Shown: positions 37,464 to 51,479 of the stretch, piece by piece
How the letters are laid out: each line of letters opens with the position of its first letter
How positions within the stretch are numbered: position 1 is the first letter of the stretch
Assembly: GCA_902766965.1 (NCBI GenBank)
Contig: CACXFJ010000047.1
Coordinates: forward strand, 3,165-67,164
Direction: 5' to 3'
DNA length: 64,000 nucleotides
Source: an uncultured Eubacteriales bacterium
GTDB lineage: Bacteria; Bacillota; Clostridia; Christensenellales; DTU072
The notes under the pieces: model-generated
Seen by the model: the letters and a program-made list of their open reading frames with translations, nothing else
What the model was told of the DNA's origin: nothing
Databases searched by the model: none
Position numbers and translations under genes: made by a program

Positions 37464-37868
37464 ATGATTACCGAAGAAGAATTAAGGAAAGCCTTTACGA
37501 AGGATAGATACGCAATAAAAAACGGAATAGAAATAGTCTGCGTGGACGAGAACGGTTCGGAAATAAGAGCGGAAATAAACGACAGTCATCTTAACGGCAA
37601 AGATATGGTTCACGGAGGAATGTTGTTTACCGTGGCAGACTTCGCTTTCGGCGTCGCCGCCAACTTTCGGCACCCCGATACGGTGACTTCGGGAGCCTCA
37701 ATTACATATTTAGCTCCTTGTTTCGATACAAAATACATAATCGCGAGAGGTAAAGAATTGTCGGCGCATAAGCACACTTGCGTGTACGAGGTAGTTATTA
37801 CCGACGACAAAGACAGAGTGGTGTGCCTCGCGCAACTTAACGGATTTATTAAAGAGGCGTTGTCGTAA
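37464..37868 (+). CDS. PaaI-family hotdog-fold thioesterase
   Basis: 134 aa. NGKDMVHGGMLFTVADFAFGVA shows the HGG...D motif of PaaI/YbdB-type thioesterases. The SD GGAGAAAG lies upstream of the ATG. Confidence 0.8.
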   Translation: MITEEELRKAFTKDRYAIKNGIEIVCVDENGSEIRAEINDSHLNGKDMVHGGMLFTVADFAFGVAANFRHPDTVTSGASITYLAPCFDTKYIIARGKELSAHKHTCVYEVVITDDKDRVVCLAQLNGFIKEALS

Positions 37869-37922
37869 ATCGGACGTTTCCGATAAAACAACGTTATCGT
37901 TTATAATAAATGAAGAAAAAAG

Positions 37923-37951
37923 TTGCAAAAATATAATAGCTGTGCTAAAAT
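37923..37951 (+). promoter_or_regulatory. Putative promoter of tRNA-Pro (TTGCAA - 17 nt - TGcTAAAAT, extended -10)
   Basis: TTGCAA is at 37923-37928 and TAAAAT at 37946-37951, preceded by TGc. The -10 element ends 13 nt before the tRNA 5' end. Confidence 0.5.
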
Positions 37952-37964
37952 AGCATACGAAAAG

Positions 37965-38041
37965 CGAGGAGTAGCGCAGTTTGGTAGCGCGCTTGGTTCG
38001 GGACCAAGAGGCCGTGGGTTCGAATCCCGTCTCCTCGACCA
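37965..38041 (+). tRNA. tRNA-Pro (anticodon CGG), CCA encoded
   Basis: Manual cloverleaf: acceptor CGAGGAG/CTCCTCG, D-arm GCGC-agtttggta-GCGC, anticodon arm CTTGG-ttCGGga-CCAAG, variable loop aggcc, T-arm GTGGG-TTCGAAT-CCCGT, discriminator A, then CCA. The total is 77 nt. Confidence 0.9.
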
Positions 38042-38078
38042 TACAAAAAAGGTAGGCGTTTTGCCTACCTTTTTTGTA
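38042..38078 (+). terminator. Rho-independent terminator after tRNA-Pro
   Basis: Perfect extended palindrome tacAAAAAAGGTAGGC-gtttt-GCCTACCTTTTTTgta, with the core stem at 38051-38057/38063-38069 and T6 at 38070-38075. Confidence 0.85.
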
Positions 38079-38730
38079 TGCTATCGGTGATAAGGACACG
38101 CCTTTTGGGGACGAACCAAGCGCAAAGAGGGGTCCCCGAAAATTGTAAATTTTTGGGGAAAAGGAGATACGGAGAGAAAAGTGCGACTGCCCGCAAGGGA
38201 GGTCGCAGAAAAGCGACAGTATCGACGCGGTTCGGGACCAAGAGGCCGTGGGTTCGCAAATTTCGCAGAATTGCGAAATCTGACGAGCGAGAAAACACGT
38301 ATTCTAAAAGTACGCAAAACGTGACCGTATTAAACTTAAAAAAGGACAAAAGCGAATACGAGTGATCCCGTCTCCGATTTGCCTACCTTTTTTGTATGCT
38401 CTCGGTGACGGGTAAAGAACGGCTCTTTGGTATAAAAAGGGTAACCCTGAAAATCGCAGATTTTTAGGGAAAAGGAGATACGGAGAGAGAAGTGCCACCG
38501 CCTATAATGACGGTGGCAGAAAAGCGACAGTATCGACGCGGGTTCGCAAATTTCGCAGAATTGCGAAATCTGACGAGCGAGAAAACACTTGTTCTGAAAG
38601 TACGCAAAACGTGGCCGTATTAAACTTAAAAAAGGACAAAAGCAAATACGAGTGATCCCGTCTCCGATTTTTCCTGTCCTTTTTGTATGCTCTCGGTGAC
38701 GGGTAAAGAACGGCTCTTTGGCATAAAATT
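38063..38730 (+). repeat. Tandem array of about 318/291-bp units (2 full copies plus a partial third) with tRNA-like features
   Basis: The anchor gcctaccttttttgtatgct lies at 38063 and 38381. A degenerate third copy (tcctgtcctttttgtatgct) ends at 38691. The 3' halves of units 1 and 2 are nearly identical apart from a 21-nt indel. The 5' halves differ in sequence but keep three hairpins. See the findings. Confidence 0.85.
38229..38256 (+). pseudogene. 28-nt fragment identical to tRNA-Pro positions 37995-38022 (anticodon arm to T-loop), embedded in repeat unit 1
   Basis: ggttcgggaccaagaggccgtgggttcg is identical in both places. The tRNA 3' piece atcccgtctcc recurs at 38365-38375 and 38655-38665 (identical to 38024-38034). 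Confidence 0.85.
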
Positions 38731-38753
38731 GACTGTATAAATTTTGCAAAAAG

Positions 38754-38780
38754 AAACGGTAGGCGTTGTGCCTACCGTTT
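38754..38780. terminator. Hairpin closing the repeat array; probable terminator of the minus-strand operon
   Basis: AAACGGTAGGC-gttgt-GCCTACCGTTT. The core ggtaggcgttgtgcctacc differs by 1 nt from the tRNA terminator core. On the minus strand it is followed by cttttt. Confidence 0.55.
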
Positions 38781-38883
38781 GCAAGTATTTTTGCCGATAA
38801 AAATAAAGTACTATTTTTAGCCGTGGTTATGAAATTTAATATAAAATCTACGAGTTTTGATAGTTTTATCCTATTTTTTACGG

Positions 38884-39432
38884 TTAGTTTTTGCGATTTT
38901 GTTCCGAGGCGGTTTTCGTGTCGGCTATGCGTTTGGCGCGGAGGGCTTTCTCCATCTCGAACAAATCGGTTTTCTGTTGGGGGGTGAGGACGGAATAGGG
39001 GACGTAGTATTCCTTGCCGTTTGTCGTGCTGAATTCTGCCACACGCTTTTTTAAGTTTATCAAACTAAGGACGCCGCTTTCGGCAAATGGTTTTTCTTTT
39101 TTGAAAGAGGAAACGGAGTAGTACCACTCGCCGTCGGCGCGTTTTTCCGCGGAAAGATTGATTTTGCCTCGAAGTCCTCTGTTGTAGCCTTTGAAAACGC
39201 CGATAAAAGGCGCGGCAATCAGGACGATTTCGCCGATTAGTATGACGATTATTCCGATAACGCGGACGAGAGGAGTTACGATTCGGAAATAGGTATAGAA
39301 CGCGGTATACAACCCTATGATAATAACGAATATCGCGAACGCGACGGAGAAAACGAACGCGGAAAATTTTCCGATTATCAAGTCGATGCGTTTGCCTTTA
39401 TAGTTACTGTCGAATTCTACGTTGAAGTTCAT
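38884..39432 (-). CDS. Hypothetical membrane protein (2 predicted TM helices plus a soluble C-terminal domain)
   Basis: 182 aa. The hydrophobic stretches are FSAFVFSVAFAIFVIIIGLYTAFY and VIGIIVILIGEIVLIAAPFIGVF. An AAGGA SD lies 7 nt upstream. It is the last gene of the minus-strand operon. No family was recognised with confidence. Confidence 0.65.
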   Translation of the reverse strand: MNFNVEFDSNYKGKRIDLIIGKFSAFVFSVAFAIFVIIIGLYTAFYTYFRIVTPLVRVIGIIVILIGEIVLIAAPFIGVFKGYNRGLRGKINLSAEKRADGEWYYSVSSFKKEKPFAESGVLSLINLKKRVAEFSTTNGKEYYVPYSVLTPQQKTDLFEMEKALRAKRIADTKTASEQNRKN

Positions 39433-39775: not shown

Positions 39776-42700
39776 TTAAGCTTCGGCTCCGCTTTCGGCT
39801 TGTCTGGATAAAGGTACGTACGCAACACCGTATTTTGAAGAGGCGTCGTCGTAAGTAAGTATAATCTGGTCGTCGCCGTAAGTGCCGACTTCGAGTTCGT
39901 ACTCAACGTCGTTTATATAGAACACGTAATATCCCGTTCCTTCGGGACTGAGTCCGACGTAAAGAACGTTTACGTATTCGCTGTCGCCCGCAAGTTTAAC
40001 TTTGAATTCGTCTGCGGCGGCGATTATTTCGACGGTTCCGGCGGAGTTTTTCCACGTTCCGAAGTATTTTGCGGGGAGATGAACTTCCGCTACCTGAGAA
40101 AGGTTTACGTTAACGTCGGCGTCTACGCTGTAAAGGTTGACGAACCTGCCGCTTGCGTTTTCGGAAAGGATAATAAAGTAAGCCGCGTCGTTGTGGACGA
40201 ATTTAAGTTCTTTTCTGGTCTTGTCGTAAGTTGCGTTATCTACCGCTAAGGTGTAACCGCGACCGAGTTTTACTTCGGCGGTTCCGTCGGCGGCGAGTTT
40301 AGCTTCATACACCTTATTATCCGCGTCTACGTAGCGCCACGTTCCCACGTATTCTTTGGGTATTACCTGTAATTCGGCTTTTTGCAGGTTGACGAGCAGT
40401 CCGTTGTTGTCGTACATAATCATCATCGGGTTGCCGTAGGAGTTAATCCAGTACATAATGTAGGTCTTGTATTCGCTGCCTTCGAGGTCGAACGCATATC
40501 CGTAATCGGACAAGGTGAAGGGAACGACTCTGTCTTCGTAGCTGTAAAGGTCGCTGTAAACGGGGTTGCCGTCGGCGTCTTTGCCGGTCTGAATATAGTA
40601 ACTTGCCGTAAGGGTAATAGACGTGTCGGTGATTACGAAACGGAAACTGTAAGGCTTCTGCCCTTCGCCGAAGTCGGTCACGACAGATTCCCAAATGCCG
40701 ACGTAGTTGTTGATTACGCTGTCCACGAGTTTTACGATATAATTTTGCGACATCGTGCCTATCTGTAAAGAAGTGCCGTCCTGACGGAGAACTATCATAT
40801 AGTTTTCGGTGACGCCGAGCGTACCGACAAAGCCTTCGGTTTCGGAATAGCTCGTCGGGACGAAAGTCATACCGTTAATCGTAATCTTGCCGTATGATAT
40901 GTTGACTTTTTGTTTGCCGTCGTCGGAAACGTACAGCCCTACGTATTTTTTCGGTATTTCTATGCCGACGTCGTCGGAAACGTAATCGACGTAGAAACGG
41001 ACGTATTCCGCATTGTCGCGGAGTTCGATTACCATTAAGAATTTATTTCCGGCGTCGTCTACTCCGGGAACGAGGTTATAGGTAGTGTTGCCCACGAGGA
41101 CGACGAGACCTTCTCTGTCGCCGCTCGAAAGGAGGGTGGCTTCGGTATCGTTGCACCACATTACGTAGGATTGAATTACGAACTTAAAATGCAAGTCCTC
41201 TGCGGCGTTATCGATAGACCATACCCCTCTGTACTCTTCCGGTATCTCGAACACTTCGGTAATTACGTTGGTCAAGGTGATATTAAGGGTATAATCTTCG
41301 CTTTGGATAAGGAGCTGTTTGGAACTTAACTTCATTATCGTTATCGACTTATCGTTCCACTTTCCCGTGAAGAAATCGGGTTCGTTTGCGGAAGAGCTCG
41401 AAGAATAGCGCAGGTTTTCTACGACGATGCCGTTAAGAATAAATCCGGCGTCGTCGCACTGACAGAAGTTGCCGTAGTCGTCCTTGTACTGTCCTTTGAA
41501 GGGGTCGAGTACGCTTGTGCGTTCGGCGTGGGCAAAGTCGAGTTCGTTTATAATATCGCTGAAATCGGTCTCAAAGTCGTAAGTTAAGGTAACTTCTTCG
41601 GTGATTCCGTAAGTGGCGTAGGTAAATTTAACTCTGTAAAGAGTGTCGTTTTTTATTTCTACGGTGAAGTCGGTGGCGTATTGGAAATAGGACTTTTCGT
41701 CCGCGCCCTCGCCGAAACAAGGAGCGATTATTCCCGCGTAGTCGCGGCTCCGTAAAACGAAAGTTTTTACGCCGTCTTTTTCGCCGGTGAACTTCATGAG
41801 TTCGGGTTTGAAGCTTTCGAAATCGGAAGTAATTTCCGCAATGTTGCTTACTGCGACGGGGTCTTTAAGAGTAATCGCTTTCTTGTCGTCCACTACCTGA
41901 ACGAAGAAAGGATATACGAGAATTCCGTCTCCCTTATGCAGAGCTTTGAAGCCGGTTTCTTCGTTGGGGAAGGCGCTGTAAATTACGTCGTCGCGTCTGA
42001 TATACTTCTTGTAATCGGTGTCCTTGTAATAAGGATCGTCGGCGTGGTCTTCGTCCACGTTGAGTTCGTGTCCCTGATGTCTTATCGAATAGGCGGTGGT
42101 CTTGTTGGCTTTTTTCAACGCCGCCGCAAGAACAGCGTGTTCCGCCGTGGTGGGATAAGGACTGTATCTTTCGGCGGGGACGGTTGCCGTCCCGACGTCG
42201 CCGATGGCGAAATCGTAGGTGGACACATACTCGGCATCGCCTCTTTTTATAAGAGCGGTTTTGATATGCAAACCTACGGGAATATCGTCGGAATTTACGC
42301 TTATTTCGAATTCAGCGATGGTTTCGGTGTATCCGGTGATGGGTTGTGCGACGTTCTTTCCGTTCTCGGAAACGTTATCGAGAGCGTATTTGCCGTCGGA
42401 AAGATAAAGTATATCGTCGGCTTTCAGAAGAAGGAAGGGATTATAATAATTGTCGAACAGCGCGTCCGAAATCAATTCGACAATCGTGTTGTCGGCGGTG
42501 TGACGGATCGAGGTAAGGTTGCGCTTGTTTTTACCGTAAACGTAGTCGTAGTAAACTTCTCCCGTTTCCGCGTCGGTTTCGATTTGCGAAATCATGTCTT
42601 TTGCGAAAATGGTCTCTACGATAAACGATTTGTTCCATTCGGGGTGATTGACGACGTCGTAAGAGTATCTTCCGTCGATACGCATATATTTTTGCAGGTT

Positions 42701-43279
42701 GGCGAAAGCGGCGGCGGTCATCGTTCTGACGAAAACCGGTTCTACTTTTGCGTTAAGGGAATAAAGGAAAGAGGCTTTTCCGTTGGCGAAAGAGATTAGT
42801 TCGCCGTTTACTTTAATTCCCGTCACTTTATATCCGTCTTTCGCCGCCGCAGACACGGATACGGTTTCTCCGTCCGCGTAGGCGTCACCGTTGGCGGGCG
42901 CGCCGACTATTAAATCGCAGGCTTCGGTTTCCGCTATTTCCAAAGTGGGTTTTCCGAAATCTACTTTGACGGAAAGGTCGCTTTTAACGGTGATTTTCAA
43001 GGTGTATTTGCCGTTTTCGTTCTCGAGAGAGGAAGTGACGTCTTCGTCGTTTACCGTGACGGAAGAAAGGTAAAATCCCGTCTTCGGCGTAATCTCCAAA
43101 GCTATCTCCGATCCGTCGGTAAGCTTGGTCGAATCGACTTCGCCGACGAAGGATACCGAGCCTTTTTCGGCGTCGAACTCTAACTTTGCCGAATAGGTGT
43201 TGTTCTCGCAGGCAAACGCCGTAACCGCAACGCAAACTACGACTATCGCCAACAATATCACGTTAATTCTCTTTTGCAT
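39776..43279 (-). CDS. Large surface lipoprotein (1,167 aa) with N-terminal InlB-B-repeat-like modules and C-terminal tandem GxW beta modules
   Basis: The signal peptide MQKRINVILLAIVVVCVAVTAFAC has the lipobox T-A-F-A-C. N-terminal modules include ALEITPKTGFYLSSVTVNDEDV and VSVSAAAKDGYKVTGIKVNGEL. Five to seven C-terminal modules open with [IL]PxxY[VF]GxW (IPEEYRGVW, IPKKYVGLY, INNYVGIW, IPKEYVGTW, LPAKYFGTW). Confidence 0.9.
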   Translation of the reverse strand: MQKRINVILLAIVVVCVAVTAFACENNTYSAKLEFDAEKGSVSFVGEVDSTKLTDGSEIALEITPKTGFYLSSVTVNDEDVTSSLENENGKYTLKITVKSDLSVKVDFGKPTLEIAETEACDLIVGAPANGDAYADGETVSVSAAAKDGYKVTGIKVNGELISFANGKASFLYSLNAKVEPVFVRTMTAAAFANLQKYMRIDGRYSYDVVNHPEWNKSFIVETIFAKDMISQIETDAETGEVYYDYVYGKNKRNLTSIRHTADNTIVELISDALFDNYYNPFLLLKADDILYLSDGKYALDNVSENGKNVAQPITGYTETIAEFEISVNSDDIPVGLHIKTALIKRGDAEYVSTYDFAIGDVGTATVPAERYSPYPTTAEHAVLAAALKKANKTTAYSIRHQGHELNVDEDHADDPYYKDTDYKKYIRRDDVIYSAFPNEETGFKALHKGDGILVYPFFVQVVDDKKAITLKDPVAVSNIAEITSDFESFKPELMKFTGEKDGVKTFVLRSRDYAGIIAPCFGEGADEKSYFQYATDFTVEIKNDTLYRVKFTYATYGITEEVTLTYDFETDFSDIINELDFAHAERTSVLDPFKGQYKDDYGNFCQCDDAGFILNGIVVENLRYSSSSSANEPDFFTGKWNDKSITIMKLSSKQLLIQSEDYTLNITLTNVITEVFEIPEEYRGVWSIDNAAEDLHFKFVIQSYVMWCNDTEATLLSSGDREGLVVLVGNTTYNLVPGVDDAGNKFLMVIELRDNAEYVRFYVDYVSDDVGIEIPKKYVGLYVSDDGKQKVNISYGKITINGMTFVPTSYSETEGFVGTLGVTENYMIVLRQDGTSLQIGTMSQNYIVKLVDSVINNYVGIWESVVTDFGEGQKPYSFRFVITDTSITLTASYYIQTGKDADGNPVYSDLYSYEDRVVPFTLSDYGYAFDLEGSEYKTYIMYWINSYGNPMMIMYDNNGLLVNLQKAELQVIPKEYVGTWRYVDADNKVYEAKLAADGTAEVKLGRGYTLAVDNATYDKTRKELKFVHNDAAYFIILSENASGRFVNLYSVDADVNVNLSQVAEVHLPAKYFGTWKNSAGTVEIIAAADEFKVKLAGDSEYVNVLYVGLSPEGTGYYVFYINDVEYELEVGTYGDDQIILTYDDASSKYGVAYVPLSRQAESGAEA

Positions 43280-43883: not shown

Positions 43884-46800
43884 TTGATGAACAGTTACAG
43901 AAGAAAATACGGCGCGTGGCTCGTATCGATAATCATCGTTCTGACGGCGTTCGTTGCGTTTAACGTTTTGTGCGTAAGTAACTTTTACGCCAATGCTGTT
44001 AAGACGGGGGACGTAGTGCCGACCGCAAACAGATTCTTTACCGTGGACGGTATCGAAGGGCTTTCCGAATTGAAAAAGGCTTACTTTAACGGTAACGTGA
44101 CTTCGGCGAACGATTATAAGACGGCTTCTTACGAAGGAGACCGTTGGATAATAGTCGAGTTCGACGGCGACACCCTTTACGACGCCTTCGAAAAGAGCGG
44201 ATACGCGAGTTTTTCCGAATACTGCGCCACCGACGCCGCCGACAAACTTAAAAACGACATCGACGAAAAGCACGCCGAATTCCTTTCGGAGTTGGACGAG
44301 AACGAAATAGAATACCGTTTCAAATATTCCTACTCCACGTTCAATAACGGCGTGGCGGTGAAAGTTAATTCCGGCGCGTATAACGTAATAAGAAAAATGA
44401 GCGGCGTCAAGAACGCGTACTTTTCCGAAAGATACGCTCAGCCGAAAGTCGCTACCGTAAACGACGCCAACGTTTATACCACCGGTATTTACGACTCCTC
44501 CGACCTCGATTATAAGGGCGAAGGAATGGTAGTAGCGATACTCGATACCGGTCTCGATTATTCCCACGAGGCTTTCCGTAACATGCCCGCCGACGCAAGT
44601 AAATGCTGGTCTAAAGAAGACGTCGCGAGAAAAATGGCGGCAAGCACTCGTTTTAACGCGAAAGCTACCGCGGACGAAGTTTATTACAACCTTAAAGTTC
44701 CGTTCGCGTACGACTACGCCGACGACGATCCCGACGTTTATCCGTCTTATTCCACCCACGGCACCCACGTCGCGGGTATAGTAGGAGGTAAGAGCGACTA
44801 CGTCGTAAACGAAGCCACCGGCGAAAAGTTCATCGGCGTGGCTCCCGAAGCGCAGCTCGTAATCTGTAAGGTATTTACCGACAATTTGGACAGCGACTCG
44901 TTAGGCGGAGCCGACACCACCGATATTCTCGCGGCTGTAAGCGACTGCGCGGAGCTCGGAGTAGATGTAATCAACATGAGCTTAGGTTCTTCGGCAGGGT
45001 TCGCCGACGAAAAGAGCAACACCGTTCTTAACGAAATCTACGCGAGAGTGAAACAGGCGGGAATAAGTCTCGTCGTCGCGGCAAGCAACGATTACTCTTC
45101 CGGTTTCGGCGGCGGCAACGGAACCAACCTCGCCACCAACCCGGACAGCGCGACGGTAGGTTCTCCGTCCACTTACGACGCGGCTTTGTCGGTAGCTTCC
45201 ATCAACGGACAAAAAGCTACCTATATTCAGGCTAACAACGATGAAAATCAGGTTGCGTTCATCACCACTTCTTCCGACGAAAACGGAAACGAATATAAAT
45301 TTACCGAACTTCTCTACAGAGTAGCGGGTAAAGATTACGCCACCTACGAAGGCAACCTCAACTTTAAGTACGTGGTAATCGGCGGCGTGGGACGCGCCAC
45401 CAACTACAACGCGGCTATAAAGAGAGAAATAAACAACAAAGAGGGTTACGACGGCGTAATAGCTCTCGTAAAGCGCGGAGATACGACTTTTGCGGAAAAG
45501 GTTCAGACCGCCATGAACAACGGAGTCGACGCCTGTATTATTTACAACAACGTATCCGGTACGATAAGAATGTCCTTAGGCGAAGTCGAAGACCCCGTGC
45601 CGACCTGTTCTATCAGCATGGACGCGGGCAAAATTTTCGTCGATAACGCGGTAAGAAACGTAGGAACTATTCAGATTAACAAGAACTTTATGGCAGGTCC
45701 GTTCATGTCCGAATTCTCGAGCTGGGGCCCTCTGCCCGATTTGCAGTTAAAACCCGAAATCACCGCTCACGGCGGCGAAATCACGAGCGCGGTACCCGGC
45801 GGATACGATATTTACAGCGGTACCAGTATGGCGTCTCCGAATATGGCGGGCGCGGTATCTTTGCTTCGTCAATACCTCAAAGAAAGCAACCCCGGACTTA
45901 CCGGTACGGAACTCACCGCGAGAGTAAATCAGGTTCTTATGAGCACCGCTACCATCGCGAACAACGAAGAAGGCAATCCTTATTCGCCCCGTAAACAGGG
46001 CGCAGGACTTGCCGGTATCTACAACGCGATACACACGGAAAGTTATATTACCGTCCTCGACGCCGAAGGGAAGGAGAGAGATAAGACGAAGATAGAACTT
46101 TTCGACGACAAGAAGAAGACCGGCGAATACGTTCTTGACTTCGTCATCAACAACATTTCCGGAAAGACGGAATATTACGACCCGAAAACCTACGTTATGA
46201 CGGAAACTTTGGCTTCCGATAACAAGACCGTCGCCGAAAAAGCTCATATGCTCGACGACAGCGACATTACCTATTACGTCAACGGAACGGCGCACAGCGG
46301 CAAGATAGAAGTCCCCGCCAACGCGAAACTCTCCGTAAAGATAGTGATAAAATTGAGCGCGGCGGCTAAACAGTATATAGAGACCGGCTTTACTAACGGT
46401 ATGTACGTAGAAGGTTTCGTATCTTTGGCAGCCGACGGAGCCGCCGGCACGAAAGTCACGATAGGTCTTCCGTACCTTGCTTTCTACGGCGACTGGAACG
46501 ACGGACCTTTGTTCGACTACGACGCGTACGAACTCGCCGAAAGTCAGAAGGATACCGGCGTACCCGAAGAGGACAAACTCAAAGCCAGCGCGGCGGAAAC
46601 CAGACCGCTCGGAAGATACTTCGACGATCAATATATAATCGCTCTCGGTTCTTATCTCTACAGTATGGACGAAAGCGAAGTTCAGATTTATCCCGAAAGA
46701 GATAAAGCGGCAGTATCCATGTTCGATACCAAGGGACAAAGAACCATTTACGAAATGTATATGGTATACGCCGGACTGTTGCGTAACGCGGCTTATATGA

Positions 46801-49800
46801 CCGTCACCGTCACCGACGCCGCCACGGGTAACGTGGTTTATAGCGAAAGGCAGGAAAACGTAAGTAAGTCTTACGCTGCCGGCGGCGGAAATCGCGGCGC
46901 TATAATAATGATGGAGATGAAGCCGAGTACCTGGGGCCTTGCAAACAACAACACGTATTTAGTCTCCTTAAAGGGAGAACTCGAGGGAGTTTACGGACAG
47001 GAGAGAGACGAGAAAGTAACCAATCCCGAAAGGGGAACGTTCGACTTCCGGTTCACCGTGGACTACGAAGCTCCGCAGGTTCTCGATTATCGTATCCGTT
47101 TCGATTCCTATAAGGACGAAAACAAGCAGATAAAGTATAAAATTTATATGGACGTGGACGTCTTCGATAACCAATACGTCATGGACGTAATGCCCTGCTA
47201 TATAAAACAGGACAAGGGCGGCAAAAACGTGCTTACGCTCGCCACGAAGTATCCCGTTCCCGTATACGGCGGAAAGGGAGAGACGTCCACCGTTTCTTTC
47301 GAAATCACCGATATTTACGAAGATTACGTCAAGACCGGTAAGTTGTATCTTGCGGTGGACGACTATGCGATGAATCAGACGACCTACGCCGTTTCCGCTC
47401 CCGCGGCTATCGATTATCCCGACGAAGTAATACTCGCCACCGACGAAAAACTCGTCGACACCGGCAAAACGGGAAAGAACACGTCGGGCGACGGCGCGGA
47501 ATATAGAATTTACGAACTTTCCTTAGCTCCGAACGAAGTGTACAAGCCGTCCGTTGCGGTCACTCCCGCGAGCGTTGCTTCCAGAAGTTTGTCTTATTAC
47601 GTCAAGAGCGGCAGCTCCTACGTTAAAGCCAACGAAGAAGAAATATTCGGCTCCAAGAACGGTATCGCCACCGTATATCTCTGCGACGTCGAAGATTCCG
47701 CTTCGCAGACTATTTACGCACGCATAGACGTGACTGTGGAGGGACAGGCGAAACAGCTCCCGAGACTTAACAAAATCACGTTAGAACCCGTCGTGAACGG
47801 AAAAGACTATGTGGTTAATTTCGACGGAACTTTGCCGTCGTTCGAAATGTATCCGAATCAGACCATTCAGTTCAAGGTCAAAGCCGACCCGTGGTATTTA
47901 AGCAATATATCCTACGAATGGAAGTCGGCTAACCCGTCGGTAGCAAGCGTGGATAAGATAGGCAATATCACTTCGCATAAGAAAGGCACCGCGATGATTA
48001 CCGTTTCCGTCGTCGGCAACGCCACCGCAAGTAAGAGCGTAAGCGTCACCGTAGGCGACGAATACAGAATAATAAACTACACCCTTTACGACTATTACGG
48101 AGGAGAAAACGTAGAAATACCCGAAAGCAAGAACATTATGTATCTTGACGAAGAGTGTTTCCAATACAACACCACCGTTAAGAGAATAGTGTTCCCGTCG
48201 ACTCTCACCGAAATACCGAAAGAAGCCTTCAAAGGCTGTACCAACCTCGAAGAAATCGTAGTTCCCGGACAATGTATCGTCATTCATAAAGAGGCGTTCA
48301 AGGACTGCGCAAAACTTAATAAAATCACTTTCGGTAAGTTTGTGGATAAAGATAAAGTAGAACACCCCGAATATACCGCCGCGATTACGATAGGCGATTA
48401 CGCCTTCAGCGGTTGTACTTCGCTTGCAACAATCGAAAACTCCAAGCGTCTTACCACCGTAGGTAACGGAGCTTTCGAAAAGTGTACTTCTCTCGAAACC
48501 ATCGACATCAGCGAACTCAGAGTCACCGGCAAGGGAGTGTTCAAAGGCTGTACCAAGTTAAGTAACGTAATTACCGACGAGAACACGAATATCGGCGAAG
48601 ATATGTTCAGCGGATGCTCCGCTTTGAGAACTTTCGATTTTTCGGGAGCTTATATAAGCGCGGGCGCTTTCGGAGGAACCGGACTTACCGAATTCAACTT
48701 CACCGATAAATCGCAACTTACCGGAATAGGACAACAAGCTTTTGCCTCTACCCTTAATCTCATTTCGATTACTCTTCCCGCGGGAAGTTACGCAATAGAA
48801 AGCGGAGCCTTCTCGGGCAGCGGCTTACAGACCGTCGTTCTCGACGATAACGCAGACATAAAGTTCGGCACAAGCACTCCGTTTACGAGTTGCGACAGGT
48901 TAGGTAAATTCATAGTTGCCGACGGTAGCGTCAACTACTCCGCGGGCGACGGCTCGACCGTGAGCGATTTAGGCGTGTTATATAATAAGGATAAGACCGA
49001 GCTTATCGCCGTACCGACCGGGAAGACCGTCGTTAAGGTTCTTGACTCGGTGACGAAGATAAGAAGCGGAGCGTTGAGCGGTTTAAGCGGACTTACCGCG
49101 TTCGACGCAAGCGGCGCGACCGAGATAGGCAATTACGCTTTCGCGGGCAGCAGCGTGACCGAAGTTACTCTTTCCGAAGAATTGACGTCGCTTCCCGAAG
49201 GCGTGTTCAGCGGCTGTTACAACCTTACGAAAGTAAGCGGAGTAAAGAACGTGACCGTCGTCGGCAGCAACGCCTTTAAGGACTGCGGCAGACTGACTTC
49301 CGTCGATATGCCCAAAGTAGAAGAAGCGGGCGATTACGCTTTCGCAAACTGCGGAATAAGAGCTTTCGTCGCTCCTCATCTTAAAAAAGCGGGCAATTCC
49401 GCTTTCAGAGAAAGTAAGATTACCGAAGCGAACTTCCCCGAGCTTACGGCTATGGGCGAAAGAGCATTCTCGAATATTTCCGCTCTTACGAGCGTAACCT
49501 TCGGCGGCGTGACCGAAATGGGCGATTACGCTTTCTATAACAGCAACAATATCGTCGACGCTACGTTCGGCGACGGAACGACTAAAATAGGCGATTACGC
49601 TTTCGCTTCCGCGACGAAGAGAGAGACCCTCACCGACGTGACGTTACCCGACGGCGTGACTTATATAGGAACGGCTGCGTTTATGCACGCAAGCAACCTT
49701 ACTTCGATAAATTTGAGCGGAGTCAAGACCGTCGAAGCGTTCGCGTTCAGATACGCCGCTAAGTTATCTTCCGCTAGGTTAAGCGGAATAGAGCATATAG

Positions 49801-51479
49801 GAGCTCGCGCGTTCGAAAGCACCGCGTTCACAGCGGCAGACCTTGCGGCGGCGAAATACGTAGGCGAATACGCGTTCCTGTCCGTACCTTTGACGAGCGT
49901 TACGTTTAATAGCCTTAAAGTAGTAGGCATAGGCGCGTTCGTCGATACCAAACTCACTACGGTAACGCTCCCCGCAAGTTTCAACGACAGAAACTACGTT
50001 TATAGCTGGGACAAGCTCGACGAAAAGGGCAGAGTGGAAGAAACGAGATACAGAAACGAACCTTCCTACGGAGCAGGCGCTTTCAGCTATATCGACACCC
50101 TTAAAGAAATACGCGTAGCGGAAGGCAACGAGGGCTTTAAGTCGATAGACGGCGTACTTTACTCGGTGGTTAAGGTTACCGAAAACGGACAAACGGTCGA
50201 AAAAGGACTTGTACTCGAACAATATCCCACCGCAAAGGAAGGACAAAGCTACGTCGTCGCCGACAATACGTTGGAAATCGGCGCGTACTCGTTCGAAGGG
50301 GTATCGACGTTGGAAAAAATAACCTTCCCGTATACCGTTAAGTCCATAGGAAGCTACGCTTTCTTCGACAGCACCGTAAACGATTATACCTTCAACAGCG
50401 TTCAGGCTCCCGCCCTTAAAGCGGAATACGTGGACGCGAGCGTGTACAAAAACGCCACTTTGCAGAGCGAATACTTCCTCTATCAGATATTCGGCACCGA
50501 CAGCGGCGTATGCATCGGCGGAACCGTTTATTACGCAAACTTCTACGATTACGTCGGAAGAAGATTGTACGCGGACAGTTTCGCAAGTTACGAAGCTCCG
50601 AGTTTCGGACTTAAAGTCACCTATCCGAAGAACGGAAAGGGATACGACACGGTAATCTGGAAAAACTTCTTCGAGACCGTAACCGTGACCGACGAAATAC
50701 TCCCCGAAGATACCACGCACGAAGCTATCGCGGCTATCGACAAAATTTCTTCCGTCATGAGCAACGACGCTATCGCGGCGGCTCCCGATATGGCTTCGCT
50801 TAACGAGATAATCGAAGCGGTAAAACAGGCAAGACTTGCTTACAATAAAATAACCTCTACCGAACAGCTCGCTCTCGTTGCCGACAAGAACGGAGTTTTG
50901 CTCGCCGCAGAAAAGGCGTTGAGAGACAAGAAAGCCGCTTTGGGCTATCCCGTAAACGTGGACAGAATAGAGTTAGCTCAAATACCGACCAAAATTCAGT
51001 ACACCGCAGGCGAAAGTTTCGACCCGACGGGTATGGCGATTAAGGTAATCTATCAAGACAGCTCCGAAGTTCTCGTTTCCGCGACGGAAACCGTTATCGA
51101 CAAGACGGTTCTTGCGGAAGGAGACGAATACGTCACCGTAACCTATACCGAACGCGGACAAAGTTACAGCGTGCAGGTATTCGTAAACGTGGTAGCGGGA
51201 CAGGAAGAAAAACCCGTTGATCCCGACGATAAAGGCGGAAAAGACGGCTTGTCCACCGGAGCTATCGTCGGAATAAGCGTAGGATGCGGATTAGCGGTTC
51301 TTGCAGGCGTAGCCGTGGCGGTAATCCTTATTCTTCGCAAGAAAAAGATAGGAATTTTCGGCAAGGTAAAGACCGAAGATATAGTTCTCCCCGAAGAGGA
51401 AATTCCGGCGAACGAAAATACCGAAGAAACCCTTTCCGAAACGGAAAATAAAGACAACGATACCAACGAAGAAAAATAA
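43884..51479 (+). CDS. Cell-envelope subtilisin-like serine protease (peptidase S8 with PA-domain insert), fused to Big_2-like, BspA-type LRR and Big_3-like domains, with a C-terminal TM anchor
   Basis: The triad appears in subtilase order: Asp in VAILDTGLD (codon 44544-44546), His in HGTHVAG (44757-44759) and Ser in GTSMASP (45825-45827). A PA-like insert GVIALVKRGDTTFAEKVQTAMNNGVDACIIYNN lies between His and Ser. A Big_2-like module is at about 47850-48055. About 30 BspA-type LRRs (IPxxAFxGCxxLxxIxxP) span about 48060-50400. A Big_3-like module is at about 50968-51195. The TM helix GAIVGISVGCGLAVLAGVAVAVILIL plus RKKK is at about 51247-51347. An N-terminal signal/anchor is present, and a GGGGGG SD lies upstream. 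Confidence 0.93.
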   Translation: MMNSYRRKYGAWLVSIIIVLTAFVAFNVLCVSNFYANAVKTGDVVPTANRFFTVDGIEGLSELKKAYFNGNVTSANDYKTASYEGDRWIIVEFDGDTLYDAFEKSGYASFSEYCATDAADKLKNDIDEKHAEFLSELDENEIEYRFKYSYSTFNNGVAVKVNSGAYNVIRKMSGVKNAYFSERYAQPKVATVNDANVYTTGIYDSSDLDYKGEGMVVAILDTGLDYSHEAFRNMPADASKCWSKEDVARKMAASTRFNAKATADEVYYNLKVPFAYDYADDDPDVYPSYSTHGTHVAGIVGGKSDYVVNEATGEKFIGVAPEAQLVICKVFTDNLDSDSLGGADTTDILAAVSDCAELGVDVINMSLGSSAGFADEKSNTVLNEIYARVKQAGISLVVAASNDYSSGFGGGNGTNLATNPDSATVGSPSTYDAALSVASINGQKATYIQANNDENQVAFITTSSDENGNEYKFTELLYRVAGKDYATYEGNLNFKYVVIGGVGRATNYNAAIKREINNKEGYDGVIALVKRGDTTFAEKVQTAMNNGVDACIIYNNVSGTIRMSLGEVEDPVPTCSISMDAGKIFVDNAVRNVGTIQINKNFMAGPFMSEFSSWGPLPDLQLKPEITAHGGEITSAVPGGYDIYSGTSMASPNMAGAVSLLRQYLKESNPGLTGTELTARVNQVLMSTATIANNEEGNPYSPRKQGAGLAGIYNAIHTESYITVLDAEGKERDKTKIELFDDKKKTGEYVLDFVINNISGKTEYYDPKTYVMTETLASDNKTVAEKAHMLDDSDITYYVNGTAHSGKIEVPANAKLSVKIVIKLSAAAKQYIETGFTNGMYVEGFVSLAADGAAGTKVTIGLPYLAFYGDWNDGPLFDYDAYELAESQKDTGVPEEDKLKASAAETRPLGRYFDDQYIIALGSYLYSMDESEVQIYPERDKAAVSMFDTKGQRTIYEMYMVYAGLLRNAAYMTVTVTDAATGNVVYSERQENVSKSYAAGGGNRGAIIMMEMKPSTWGLANNNTYLVSLKGELEGVYGQERDEKVTNPERGTFDFRFTVDYEAPQVLDYRIRFDSYKDENKQIKYKIYMDVDVFDNQYVMDVMPCYIKQDKGGKNVLTLATKYPVPVYGGKGETSTVSFEITDIYEDYVKTGKLYLAVDDYAMNQTTYAVSAPAAIDYPDEVILATDEKLVDTGKTGKNTSGDGAEYRIYELSLAPNEVYKPSVAVTPASVASRSLSYYVKSGSSYVKANEEEIFGSKNGIATVYLCDVEDSASQTIYARIDVTVEGQAKQLPRLNKITLEPVVNGKDYVVNFDGTLPSFEMYPNQTIQFKVKADPWYLSNISYEWKSANPSVASVDKIGNITSHKKGTAMITVSVVGNATASKSVSVTVGDEYRIINYTLYDYYGGENVEIPESKNIMYLDEECFQYNTTVKRIVFPSTLTEIPKEAFKGCTNLEEIVVPGQCIVIHKEAFKDCAKLNKITFGKFVDKDKVEHPEYTAAITIGDYAFSGCTSLATIENSKRLTTVGNGAFEKCTSLETIDISELRVTGKGVFKGCTKLSNVITDENTNIGEDMFSGCSALRTFDFSGAYISAGAFGGTGLTEFNFTDKSQLTGIGQQAFASTLNLISITLPAGSYAIESGAFSGSGLQTVVLDDNADIKFGTSTPFTSCDRLGKFIVADGSVNYSAGDGSTVSDLGVLYNKDKTELIAVPTGKTVVKVLDSVTKIRSGALSGLSGLTAFDASGATEIGNYAFAGSSVTEVTLSEELTSLPEGVFSGCYNLTKVSGVKNVTVVGSNAFKDCGRLTSVDMPKVEEAGDYAFANCGIRAFVAPHLKKAGNSAFRESKITEANFPELTAMGERAFSNISALTSVTFGGVTEMGDYAFYNSNNIVDATFGDGTTKIGDYAFASATKRETLTDVTLPDGVTYIGTAAFMHASNLTSINLSGVKTVEAFAFRYAAKLSSARLSGIEHIGARAFESTAFTAADLAAAKYVGEYAFLSVPLTSVTFNSLKVVGIGAFVDTKLTTVTLPASFNDRNYVYSWDKLDEKGRVEETRYRNEPSYGAGAFSYIDTLKEIRVAEGNEGFKSIDGVLYSVVKVTENGQTVEKGLVLEQYPTAKEGQSYVVADNTLEIGAYSFEGVSTLEKITFPYTVKSIGSYAFFDSTVNDYTFNSVQAPALKAEYVDASVYKNATLQSEYFLYQIFGTDSGVCIGGTVYYANFYDYVGRRLYADSFASYEAPSFGLKVTYPKNGKGYDTVIWKNFFETVTVTDEILPEDTTHEAIAAIDKISSVMSNDAIAAAPDMASLNEIIEAVKQARLAYNKITSTEQLALVADKNGVLLAAEKALRDKKAALGYPVNVDRIELAQIPTKIQYTAGESFDPTGMAIKVIYQDSSEVLVSATETVIDKTVLAEGDEYVTVTYTERGQSYSVQVFVNVVAGQEEKPVDPDDKGGKDGLSTGAIVGISVGCGLAVLAGVAVAVILILRKKKIGIFGKVKTEDIVLPEEEIPANENTEETLSETENKDNDTNEEK

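Follow-up and report, generated by a model that had tools for sequence, protein, structure and literature searches.

The RtT repeats at the tyrT locus of E. coli have been known since the 1970s. They make up the Rfam family RF00391, occur at tyrT and tyrV as tandem units of roughly 180-300 bp directly 3' of a tRNA gene, and vary in copy number among strains, with a range of one to nine units per genome in a set of 4726. An RtT unit comprises antisense tRNA-Tyr sequence running from position 77 to 56, a sense copy of 54-70 that ends in GGTTCGA, a 67-nt insert that is not derived from the tRNA, and an exact copy of the tRNA 3' end (AATCC...CCACCA; AATCCTTCCCCCACCACCA). The unit is closed by pairing between its antisense and sense copies, as in the Rfam consensus. 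The associated RNA, RttR, is reported to have been detected and to be stable (PMC3318445, citing Bosl and Kersten 1991). Displaced fragments of tRNA genes (attR) are also left by tRNA-targeting integrases, and cis-mobilizable elements can accrete in tandem at such sites (PMC9897764, PMC4383910).

We analyzed a window of 64,000 nt, the whole stretch of DNA considered here, from an uncultured Eubacteriales bacterium. A tandem array of units of about 200-300 bp, variable among strains, lies directly 3' of a tRNA-Pro(CGG) gene (37965..38041, + strand). We consider it likely that these foldback units descend from the tRNA gene beside them and form an RtT-like tRNA-linked repeat in a distant lineage of gut Clostridia. 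The original prediction had left the region outside any known RNA family; the RtT repeats have the same architecture, although the units do not score as members of the RtT family. Its second suggestion, a decayed tandem tRNA array that kept its structure, came close: the units are built from both sense and antisense fragments of tRNA-Pro, and their number and type vary among strains. Their composition indicates that the units are patchworks of the neighboring tRNA-Pro(CGG) gene and not a novel class of tRNA-like RNA.

The tRNA gene has a sigma-70-type promoter at 37923..37951 (+ strand; TTGCAA and TAAAAT separated by a 17-nt spacer, with TG). In a scan of positions 37800-39000 this was the only promoter-like site, and none was found inside the array. 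ARAGORN and the Rfam tRNA model (RF00005) recognized a cloverleaf at 37965-38041 only, the source of every tRNA-like piece downstream, and did not detect the units as tRNAs or pseudo-tRNAs. A repeat search and reading of the sequence place a perfect 18-bp palindrome, CATACAAAAAAGGTAGGC gtttt GCCTACCTTTTTTGTATG (38040..38080, unstranded), immediately 3' of the tRNA as a bidirectional intrinsic terminator. The distal boundary of the array is the intrinsic terminator of a convergent minus-strand operon with genes for proteins of 182 aa and 86 aa (38754..38780, - strand), and terminators face the array from both sides. Two long units (38063-38380 and 38381-38671) and a partial third (38672-38730) lie between them, recovered in repeat analysis as a three-copy family with starts at 38060, 38378, and 38669. 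The 3' halves of the two long units (38247-38380 and 38537-38670) are 96% identical over 134 nt, in line with the near-identity reported originally, and 38134-38230 matches 38445-38541 with 85% identity. A 28-nt unit core occurs twice, with zero occurrences expected from 100 shuffles, and is found nowhere else in the window; the repetition of units is not due to chance. Tandem Repeats Finder did not report the period of about 300 bp because the 5' halves of the units are too divergent.

The order of parts in a unit is an antisense copy of the tRNA 3' part, a sense copy from the anticodon stem to TTCG, an insert of about 108 nt, an exact copy of the tRNA 3' end, and the 3' half of the terminator. 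Two hairpins (H2 and H3), a purine-rich linker, and an apparent decayed tRNA 5' half are additional features of long units. At the start of unit 1, the tRNA 3' part is present as a decayed antisense copy (38063..38123, - strand) that aligns to the reverse complement of 37989-38078, includes an inverted match 83% complementary to 37989-38012, and holds the 5' strand of a further predicted hairpin, H1. Hairpin H2 (38134..38158, + strand) has 11 bp, one of them a G-U pair that is allowed on the + strand only. It is followed by the linker AAAGGAGATACGGAGAGAAAAG (38160..38181, + strand), whose core AAGGAGATACGGAGAG is identical across all long units seen while two to three flanking positions differ among copies; by eye, the linker appears to resemble the tRNA 5' leader ATACGAAAAG. 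Hairpin H3 (38182..38207, + strand) is followed by GAAAAGCGACAGTATCGACGC (38208..38228, + strand), in which a local alignment reaches GTAGCGCGC and a 9-nt match, GAAAAGCGA, to 37959-37967 can be read; this segment is probably the decayed tRNA leader, acceptor start, and D-arm of a sense tRNA copy. Next, 38229..38256 (+ strand) repeats tRNA positions 37995-38022 exactly and in sense orientation, a 28-nt copy that reaches from the anticodon stem to the TTCG of the T-loop. Both this copy and the decayed antisense copy that opens each unit had escaped the original prediction. The T-loop copy is split by the 108-nt non-tRNA insert (38257..38364, + strand), which consists of CAAAT, a perfect 8-bp hairpin, ATTTCGCAgaatTGCGAAAT (38260-38279, repeated at 38550-38569), CTGACGAG, an A/G-rich middle, and a terminal TACGAGTG. 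Unit 1 resumes the tRNA with ATCCCGTCTCC (38365..38375, + strand), an exact copy of 38024-38034 that comprises the end of the T-loop, the 3' strand of the T-stem, and the start of the acceptor 3' strand.

Unit 2 starts (38378..38412, unstranded) with the 3' half of the terminator and an antisense tRNA 3' end, GCCTACCTTTTTTGTATGCTCTCGGTGACGGG, that is 88% complementary to 38026-38057. Compared with unit 1, its H2 (38445..38469, + strand) has two double compensatory changes and its 8-bp H3 (38493..38518, + strand) has one. Of the sense tRNA copy, GGGTTCG alone stands before the insert copy (38547..38654, + strand), as unit 2 lacks the 21 nt that separate two GGTTCG repeats. The insert copy is followed by the third exact copy of ATCCCGTCTCC (38655..38665, + strand). 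Partial unit 3 (38668..38730, unstranded) combines the 3' half of a second type of terminator, TTTTTCCTGTCCTTTTTGT, with a fragment of the antisense tRNA 3' end. It is present in every same-species variant that reaches this point (L002, L003, L004, L011, L020, and L038), and is missing from L001 and L023, both of which break off inside a unit.

The units of this array and of E. coli RtT thus share their plan: tandem copies directly 3' of a tRNA gene, an antisense copy of the T-arm and acceptor 3' strand, a sense copy that stops after the first half of the T-loop (at GGTTCGA in E. coli and at GGGTTCG in the array), an insert of non-tRNA sequence (67 nt and 108 nt, respectively), an exact repeat of the tRNA 3' end (ATCCCGTCTCC at 38365 and 38655 in the array), a closing stem formed by antisense and sense copies, strain-variable copy number, and a short basic open reading frame (ORF) overlapping the unit. 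They differ in several respects. The tRNA is Pro rather than Tyr and the host belongs to a different phylum; between the tRNA and unit 1 stands a strong intrinsic terminator, half of which recurs in each unit, whereas no terminator-like palindrome lies between tyrV and the first RtT unit; and the long units have H2, H3, and a decayed 5' half in addition. The RtT covariance model did not match the whole window at the gathering threshold, nor did it match 37800-39000, the simple unit of L038, or the related loci L029 and L030 even at E<=10; the family threshold is 45 bits, and E. coli units used as a positive control scored 133-137 bits. Local alignment of the insert to the RtT insert gave scores of 14-17 against shuffle means of 13.5-15.7, with 116-281 of 500 shuffles scoring as well, and homology by way of two apparently shared blocks, AGCGAGAAAAC and CGAGU.AUCC, was rejected as being at chance level in the shuffle test. 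Because the similarity of the inserts is no better than that of shuffled sequence, the alignments indicate that the likeness is architectural and not demonstrable homology.

The original prediction had drawn an analogy to tmRNA and YrlA, which close with an acceptor/T-arm mimic. An RNA made from an array unit would likewise end in a helix that includes the tRNA T-stem/acceptor 3' strand. However, the analogy is not supported: the T-loop copy is interrupted after TTCG so that no intact T-loop is present, and the tRNA-like part is a literal fragment of the neighboring gene rather than an independently evolved mimic. Neither tmRNA nor YrlA was matched in Rfam even at E<=10, a level at which 37800-39000, the simple unit of L038, L029, and L030 gave, besides tRNA, only chance-level matches to terminator-like sRNAs; at the gathering threshold the tRNA was the sole match. 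A hammerhead ribozyme, suggested by CUGACGAG beside the insert hairpin, was also rejected, as helix II is missing, CAA stands in place of an NUH triplet before the hairpin, and no Rfam match was obtained at E<=10. By eye, the integron attC site fits in its AAC...GTT alone and not in its R''/R' consensus.

Since its antisense and sense tRNA copies face each other, each unit folds into a multi-hairpin structure, whether as RNA or as single-stranded DNA. In minimum-free-energy folds of units from the window and its relatives, with z-scores of -5.0 to -6.3, the antisense copy pairs with the sense copy in a closing stem whose 3' strand is the tRNA T-stem/acceptor strand. On re-reading, all strings and positions of the original prediction were exact, including those of H2, H3, the insert hairpin, and the terminator cores at 38051 and 38758, but two of its pairings were not borne out by these folds. 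Hairpin H1 (38107-38137 in unit 1, 38438-38448 in unit 2) does not form, as its strands belong to the remnant of an antisense anticodon arm that is paired with the sense copy. Similarly, TCTCCG (38371-38376 and 38661-38666) had been proposed to close each unit by pairing with CGGAGA (38170-38175 and 38481-38486), but it pairs instead with the antisense copy at the unit start.

The array is fluid among close relatives. Strains whose neighboring thioesterase protein is identical (100%) carry between one and roughly two and a half units, which fall into three types. Two long units and a partial one are found in the window, L011, and L020; L002 has a simple unit and a long unit; in L003, a simple unit follows a long one that includes a complete tRNA 3' part and a terminator; a single unit is present in L004 and in L038; and L006 has simple units in tandem. 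Simple units, which lack H2, H3, and the linker, are the sole units in some strains (L038 and L006). The differences between strains amount to whole units bounded by repeats of 60-130 nt and to deletions between GTTCG or GGTTCG microhomologies, and comparison of the assemblies shows that close strains gain, lose, and recombine units. Most copies keep 11 nt of the tRNA 3' end and lack the CCA, which is present in L003, L001, and L021. Short-read assemblies break at the tRNA and at about position 38692.

A search for homologs, which had been proposed as a check on the original prediction, recovered the same architecture in other strains, in other species, and in distant lineages. The same locus is found in two other species labelled Christensenella sp. 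(L021 and L022) and in more distant Clostridia MAGs (L029 and L030/L031), in which the thioesterase is 61% and 54% identical. In L030, CAAAT, a hairpin, and CTGACGAG open the insert and TACGAGTG closes it, at precisely the same point of the T-loop; the 5' block of this insert aligns with a score of 28 against 18.9 +/- 3.2 for shuffles, 9 of 500 of which did as well. Synteny with the tRNA is lost next to the thioesterase homologs P0015, P0017, and P0011, and the contigs of P0003, P0005, and P0008 stop at the tRNA. Among 185,579 species representatives searched, the unit core was found at one locus in each of two, and the two metagenome records that contain it are both this locus. Tests of three unit-specific blocks (core and 3' end of the 108-nt insert, and start of the linker/H3) likewise placed them at this one locus only. 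A MITE or other dispersed repeat was therefore rejected, given the single locus per genome.

These comparisons bear on whether the units are instead independent genes for a structured, tRNA-mimicking ncRNA. Selection on RNA structure would then maintain H2, H3, the closing stem, and the hairpin of the insert, and the RNA would work by means of its tRNA-like 3' helix, perhaps as a decoy or substrate for factors that process or bind tRNA. Conservation argues for such a role: between species the units are 87-96% identical, as high as flanking coding DNA (73-90%) or higher and clearly above other intergenic DNA, which is 65-72% identical or unalignable. Purely neutral repeat dynamics do not explain this. 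Within the clade of the window, the first ~47 nt and last ~22 nt of the insert are invariant in all copies, the hairpin loop excepted, and in other lineages the pairing of the insert hairpin is retained with different sequences (ATTTCGCA/TGCGAAAT, ATTCGCC/GGCGAAT, and TTCGTAC/GTACGAA). L029 and L030 also have H2-like hairpins with stems of unrelated sequence, and the G-U pairs in H2 and in the hairpins of the L038 and L021 simple units are tolerated on the + strand only. A formal count confirmed the two double compensatory changes reported originally for H2 as well as the one in H3; 97.2% of cells are paired, three pairs are changed on both sides, and the covariation score was reached in 2 of 500 shuffles. 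Hairpin covariation exists, but two or three events lie behind it in what are effectively three sequence types, and template switching between the arms of a palindrome can also give covariation without selection. By our reading of the alignment, variants do not agree on any pairing in the middle of the insert. Simple units, which some strains carry alone, lack H2, H3, and the linker, and these parts are therefore dispensable. In addition, the array has no internal promoter and is faced by terminators, and no Rfam family matches it. The E. coli analogue does yield a stable RNA, annotated as RttR (PMC3318445). The structured ncRNA family of the original prediction has cross-species conservation and a slight covariation in its favor, but the lack of a promoter, the terminators, and the simple units count against it, and we regard independent ncRNA genes as possible but rather unlikely.

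Less probable still is an origin as scars of integrative elements that target tRNA-Pro, with attR-like 3' fragments and the conserved arm sequences of deleted elements left as tiny tandem cis-mobilizable remnants. As with att fragments, direct-orientation copies of the tRNA 3' part lie 3' of an intact gene at a strain-variable locus; the copy in the window is identical to the gene over 28 nt, and in L003, L001, and L023 the long unit ends with the complete tRNA 3' part (anticodon stem to CCA) and the terminator, the classic form of a displaced fragment. In L021, a 2.2-kb restriction cassette with its own terminator, encoding a DpnD/PcfM-like protein, DpnI, and a truncated methylase, is inserted exactly between the CCA end of a pseudo-tRNA and the terminator; in L030, genes for XRE-type regulators and a large SNF2-type helicase lie beyond the array; and gene content just past the array depends on the strain (L001, L004, and L038). 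However, no integrase or recombinase family was annotated among called genes within 6-10 kb of the array (L001-L004, L011, L030, and L038), there is no island between the tRNA and the fragments, which are only ~190 bp apart in the window, and no other tRNA-Pro fragment occurs elsewhere in the 64 kb. Blastn searches for a phage, plasmid, or viral origin found nothing in plasmids and, in phages, nothing beyond trivial matches to tRNA-Pro genes, and three unit blocks had no match in the viral contigs searched. Antisense tRNA copies and a split T-loop are not left by site-specific integration, units differ at microhomologies and not at one fixed crossover point, and E. coli RtT has the same architecture without an island.

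Finally, it is very improbable that the array encodes small, very basic peptides like the 'protamine-like' tpr annotated inside the RtT unit of E. coli, where it overlaps RttR: a K/R-rich frame of 95 aa is open at 38078-38365, related ORFs are called as genes in public assemblies (P0018-P0023), and the 21-nt difference between units leaves a frame open, but the ORF start, end, and length shift with every structural variant, the CTGACGAG block of L030 lies in a different frame and its translation is unrelated after four residues, the basic composition follows from purine-rich DNA, and the database relatives are the same locus in close relatives only, so we rejected a protein-coding reading as its frames are not conserved.

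The preferred reading, a foldback array derived from tRNA-Pro, suggests how the units may have formed. The first units would have been produced when the tRNA gene was duplicated, in direct and inverted orientation, around its palindromic terminator, and unequal homologous recombination together with slippage or template switching would have reshaped them; by the same processes, a change in one arm of a hairpin can be transferred to the opposite arm. Given the terminator at 38040-38080 and the lack of a promoter-like site inside the array, co-transcription with the tRNA is doubtful. If polymerase does read into the array, the analogy with RtT/RttR of E. coli, and that analogy only, suggests that each unit may leave a compact RNA by-product with a tRNA-like 3' helix; a product processed in the RtT manner would be ~200-300 nt long, come from the + strand, and end in ...CCCGTCTCC.

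The array has practical consequences for work on these gut bacteria. It accounts for the breaks of short-read assemblies at the tRNA and for the spurious basic 'proteins' that gene callers emit here, and its tRNA-like fragments should not be taken as novel tRNA mimics. More broadly, the locus is a second system, of unrelated sequence, with the architecture of RtT, next to another tRNA, in a distant phylum, and across several species-level lineages. This suggests either a general mutational route by which tRNA genes with palindromic terminators turn into foldback arrays, or a shared function. A bolder proposal, which we find improbable, is that RtT-type units, with antisense and sense tRNA 3' fragments on either side of a T-loop-splitting insert, are a recurrent functional class in bacteria, either independently evolved or very old at different tRNA genes of Proteobacteria and Clostridia, in which an acceptor/T-helix mimic would be selected as a decoy or regulator in tRNA processing or sensing, or as a decoy attachment site that shields the tRNA gene. 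The array in any case gives a comparative handle on the origin and role of RtT.

The tRNA-like pieces of the tandem array located directly 3' of tRNA-Pro are literal fragments of the adjacent tRNA gene. This gene, tRNA-Pro(CGG) at 37965-38041, is the sole tRNA that ARAGORN and Rfam identified in the 64-kb window. All strings and coordinates of the original prediction were exact upon re-reading of the region. A repeat search recovered a 134-nt repeat (38247-38380 versus 38537-38670, 96% identical), a 97-nt repeat (38134-38230 versus 38445-38541, 85% identical), and a three-copy family with unit starts at 38060, 38378, and 38669. As a 28-nt unit core also occurs twice in the window against zero occurrences expected by chance, the tandem units that had been claimed are real. 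The tRNA segment from the anticodon stem to the TTCG of the T-loop (37995-38022) is present as an exact sense copy at 38229-38256, and ATCCCGTCTCC (38024-38034 in the tRNA) has exact copies at 38365 and 38655. The terminator palindrome (38040-38080, 18 perfect pairs) is directly followed by a decayed antisense copy of the 3' part of the tRNA (38063-38123). Antisense copies of the 3' end are better preserved at the starts of unit 2 (38381-38412, 88% complementary to 38026-38057) and of the partial unit 3. The tRNA likeness that had been noted in the units is therefore present, but as inheritance from the neighboring gene rather than as mimicry. Likewise, the strands of hairpin H1 had been read exactly, but they form part of an antisense anticodon-arm remnant. 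Judging from a local alignment and a 9-nt match read from the sequence, GAAAAGCGACAGTATCGACGC, 5' of the sense copy, appears to be a degraded leader plus D-arm. The non-tRNA content of the units consists of only four items, namely hairpins H2 and H3, a purine-rich linker, and an insert of 108 nt (38257-38364 and 38547-38654) interrupting the T-loop copy between TTCG and AT. A K/R-rich ORF of 95 aa that runs across unit 1 (38078-38365, plus strand) and is listed in public collections as a predicted protein (P0018-P0023) almost certainly reflects spurious gene calling in purine-rich repeat DNA.

In minimum-free-energy folds of the units, the antisense and sense tRNA copies pair together. A pairing of the 3' CCCGUCUCCG with CGGAGA had been proposed, but in these folds the partner of this strand is instead the antisense copy that opens the unit. 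Folding of both strands is much stronger than that of shuffled sequences (z of -5.0 to -6.3), as expected of inverted repeats. The compensatory hairpin changes reported between copies were recovered in a formal count over six unit copies (paired cells, 97.2%), with changes on both sides in three pairs, two in H2 and one in H3, and a covariation score reached by 2 of 500 shuffles. This covariation derives from two or three events in what are effectively three sequence types, and arm-to-arm template switching in palindromes would give same-looking changes; for these reasons, the statistics cannot establish selection on RNA structure. An array representing a selected family of ncRNA genes would account for the hairpins and for the conservation of the units, which are 87-96% identical between the window species and either of two loci from other lineages (L021 and L022). 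In the same comparisons, the thioesterase, 182-aa, and aminotransferase genes nearby are 78-81%, 73%, and 89-90% identical, respectively, and intergenic DNA elsewhere is either 65-72% identical or cannot be aligned. Within the window clade, the two ends of the insert (its initial ~47 nt and final ~22 nt) vary in the hairpin loop alone; the middle is polymorphic, with no consistent pairing seen. However, the absence of a promoter for the array makes an ncRNA family less convincing, as do strains having simple units alone, in which H2 and H3 are dispensable. Apart from the tRNA promoter, 37800-39000 contains no promoter-like site, and the array is bracketed by the bidirectional terminator of the tRNA on one side and the terminator of a convergent minus-strand operon on the other. 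A TGGTATAAA string in unit 2 resembles an extended -10 by eye, and is conserved neither in L022 nor in unit 1.

No Rfam family matched the array at the gathering threshold. Nothing relevant appeared at E<=10 either, with tmRNA, a Y-RNA-like family, ROOL/GOLLD, and ribozymes all without a match, and the suggested analogy to tmRNA or Y-RNA-like RNAs finds no counterpart there. Among known systems, the RtT repeat (RF00391) of the E. coli tyrT-tyrV operon, a locus that we fetched and analyzed, comes closest. This locus contains four RF00391 matches (133-137 bits), three downstream of tyrV at 178-bp spacing and a fourth between tyrT and tyrV. The E. coli unit combines an antisense copy of tRNA-Tyr 77->56 with a sense copy (54-70) that ends in GGTTCGA, followed by a 67-nt non-tRNA insert and then an exact AATCCTTCCCCCACCACCA; the closing stem of the Rfam consensus structure is exactly this antisense:sense pairing. 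The unit is annotated as the small RNA RttR, overlaps the “protamine-like” tpr ORF, and varies from 1 to 9 copies across 4726 genomes. Two papers that cite Bosl and Kersten 1991 (PMC3318445; bioRxiv 10.1101/2024.07.17.603846) describe rtT RNA as a product of the tyrT-operon repeat unit that may modulate the stringent response. The tRNA-Pro units match the RtT architecture point for point, although in the window, unlike in RtT, a strong terminator separates the first unit from the tRNA. Membership in the RtT family itself fails: the RtT model has no match in the window, a simple unit, or the distant loci L029 and L030, and the tRNA-Pro and RtT inserts are no more similar than shuffled sequence.

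To compare strains, we fetched contigs encoding identical flanking proteins. Two (L011, L020) have the same arrangement after the tRNA as the window. A simple unit, lacking H2, linker, and H3, replaces unit 1 in L002; L003, L001, and L023 have a long unit with a complete tRNA 3' part (GGTTCGGG...CTCCTCGACCA) and terminator at its end, and then a simple unit; L004 and L038 have a single unit; and L006 has simple units of ~190 bp each in tandem. Simple units show a perfect hairpin where antisense meets sense (AACGGCTCTTT atcc AAAGAGCCGTT), then CG and the insert. Relative to the L003 form, window unit 1 shows a difference of ~100 bp with a GTTCG sequence at each boundary, and unit 2 lacks the 21 nt between two GGTTCG repeats. 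These variants show that the locus has been reshaped by gain and loss of whole units and by microhomology deletions, without one fixed crossover point. In L001 (~6990-8115) and L023, a unit breaks off inside the insert, after AACTTAAAA, and joins a gene that is 5'-truncated and frameshifted and resembles the repeat proteins. Next come an AAA_14/DUF4143 ATPase and a P-type ATPase; the downstream region is unlike that of the window, in a strain with the same thioesterase protein. L038 (10314-12307) and L004 (7058-8688) carry an additional operon beyond the array, encoding a 145-aa protein, a Band_7/SPFH protein, and a 69-aa protein. This operon, which the window lacks, separates the array from the 182-aa gene, and its breakpoint is directly past the distal terminator (window ~38808). 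Many short-read contigs stop at the tRNA or near window 38692, as repeats would cause. Logan contigs of several species (L007-L010, L013-L016, L025-L028, L036, L037) end inside tRNA-Pro or at the ~38692 equivalent; assemblies at this locus are systematically broken by tRNA-derived repeats.

The window also encodes very large proteins. One plus-strand ORF (585-35609) of 11,674 aa, conserved in related contigs at 11,636-11,674 aa, has a lipoprotein-like N-terminus and almost no Pfam matches, and may encode a giant protein of the cell surface. Two further proteins, which flank the array region, also appear to be large surface proteins: one of 2531 aa with subtilase (Peptidase_S8), PA, Big_2, and LRR_5 domains (43884-51479, plus strand), and a 1167-aa repeat protein (39776-43279, minus strand).

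The array is conserved at one locus over several Clostridia lineages. The insert core was found in only 2 of 185,579 species representatives (L021 and L022, both titled Christensenella sp.) and in two metagenome records, each time at the same thioesterase-tRNA-Pro locus; in viral contigs, phage records, and plasmids, the array sequence gave only trivial phage tRNA-Pro matches. The single unit of L022 and L024 is a mosaic of window unit-2 H2 and unit-1 H3. More distant loci, found via thioesterase homologues (L029, 61% thioesterase identity; L030 and L031, 54%), have tRNA-Pro(CGG) followed by units of the same plan. Unit 2 of L030 is a nearly full tRNA copy (segments of 28 nt and 23 nt are exact), with an H2-like hairpin (CCCCAAAAACGC aa GCGTTTTTGGGG) in place of the 5' side of the anticodon arm. 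The L030 T-loop insert, at a position identical to that in the window, has CAAAT, a hairpin, and CTGACGAG at its start and TACGAGTG at its end; the 5' block scored 28 versus 18.9 +/- 3.2 in shuffles, 9 of 500 of which were as good. For inserts at the same site to have 5 start and 8 end bases in common is far beyond chance. The L029 insert is shorter and is likewise a TTCG...CGAA hairpin. In the window, L021, L022, L029, and L030, the 77-nt tRNA-Pro(CGG) is 100% identical, with thioesterase proteins only 54-80% identical, and always lies directly 3' of the PaaI/4HBT thioesterase gene. Upstream of the functional tRNA, L030 has an internally deleted tRNA copy (5453-5486; a 33-nt exact 5'-half copy plus CGACCA) that is missing from the otherwise identical L031.

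Integrase att scars would fit three things: the complete tRNA 3' fragment in L003, a 2.2-kb cassette in L021 exactly between the pseudo-tRNA CCA end and the terminator, and the variability of downstream genes between strains, all in agreement with general knowledge (PMC9897764, PMC4383910). This cassette, at 4106-5936 on the minus strand of the locus, is a methyl-dependent restriction system of the DpnI type, with genes for a DpnD/PcfM-like protein, DpnI with DpnI_C, and a truncated N6/N4 methylase. Copies of the insert's first ~57 nt lie on either side of it. However, no integrase is among the listed genes near any locus, integration does not produce antisense copies or a split T-loop, and E. 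coli RtT has the same plan without an island. Genes for small basic peptides are unlikely because reading frames are not conserved, the L030 sequence included. The function of the array can at best be surmised, and it may be an RtT-like by-product RNA or a role at the DNA level. The repeat dynamics are established, and the array is a real, strain-variable foldback repeat that derives from tRNA-Pro and is RtT-like in architecture.
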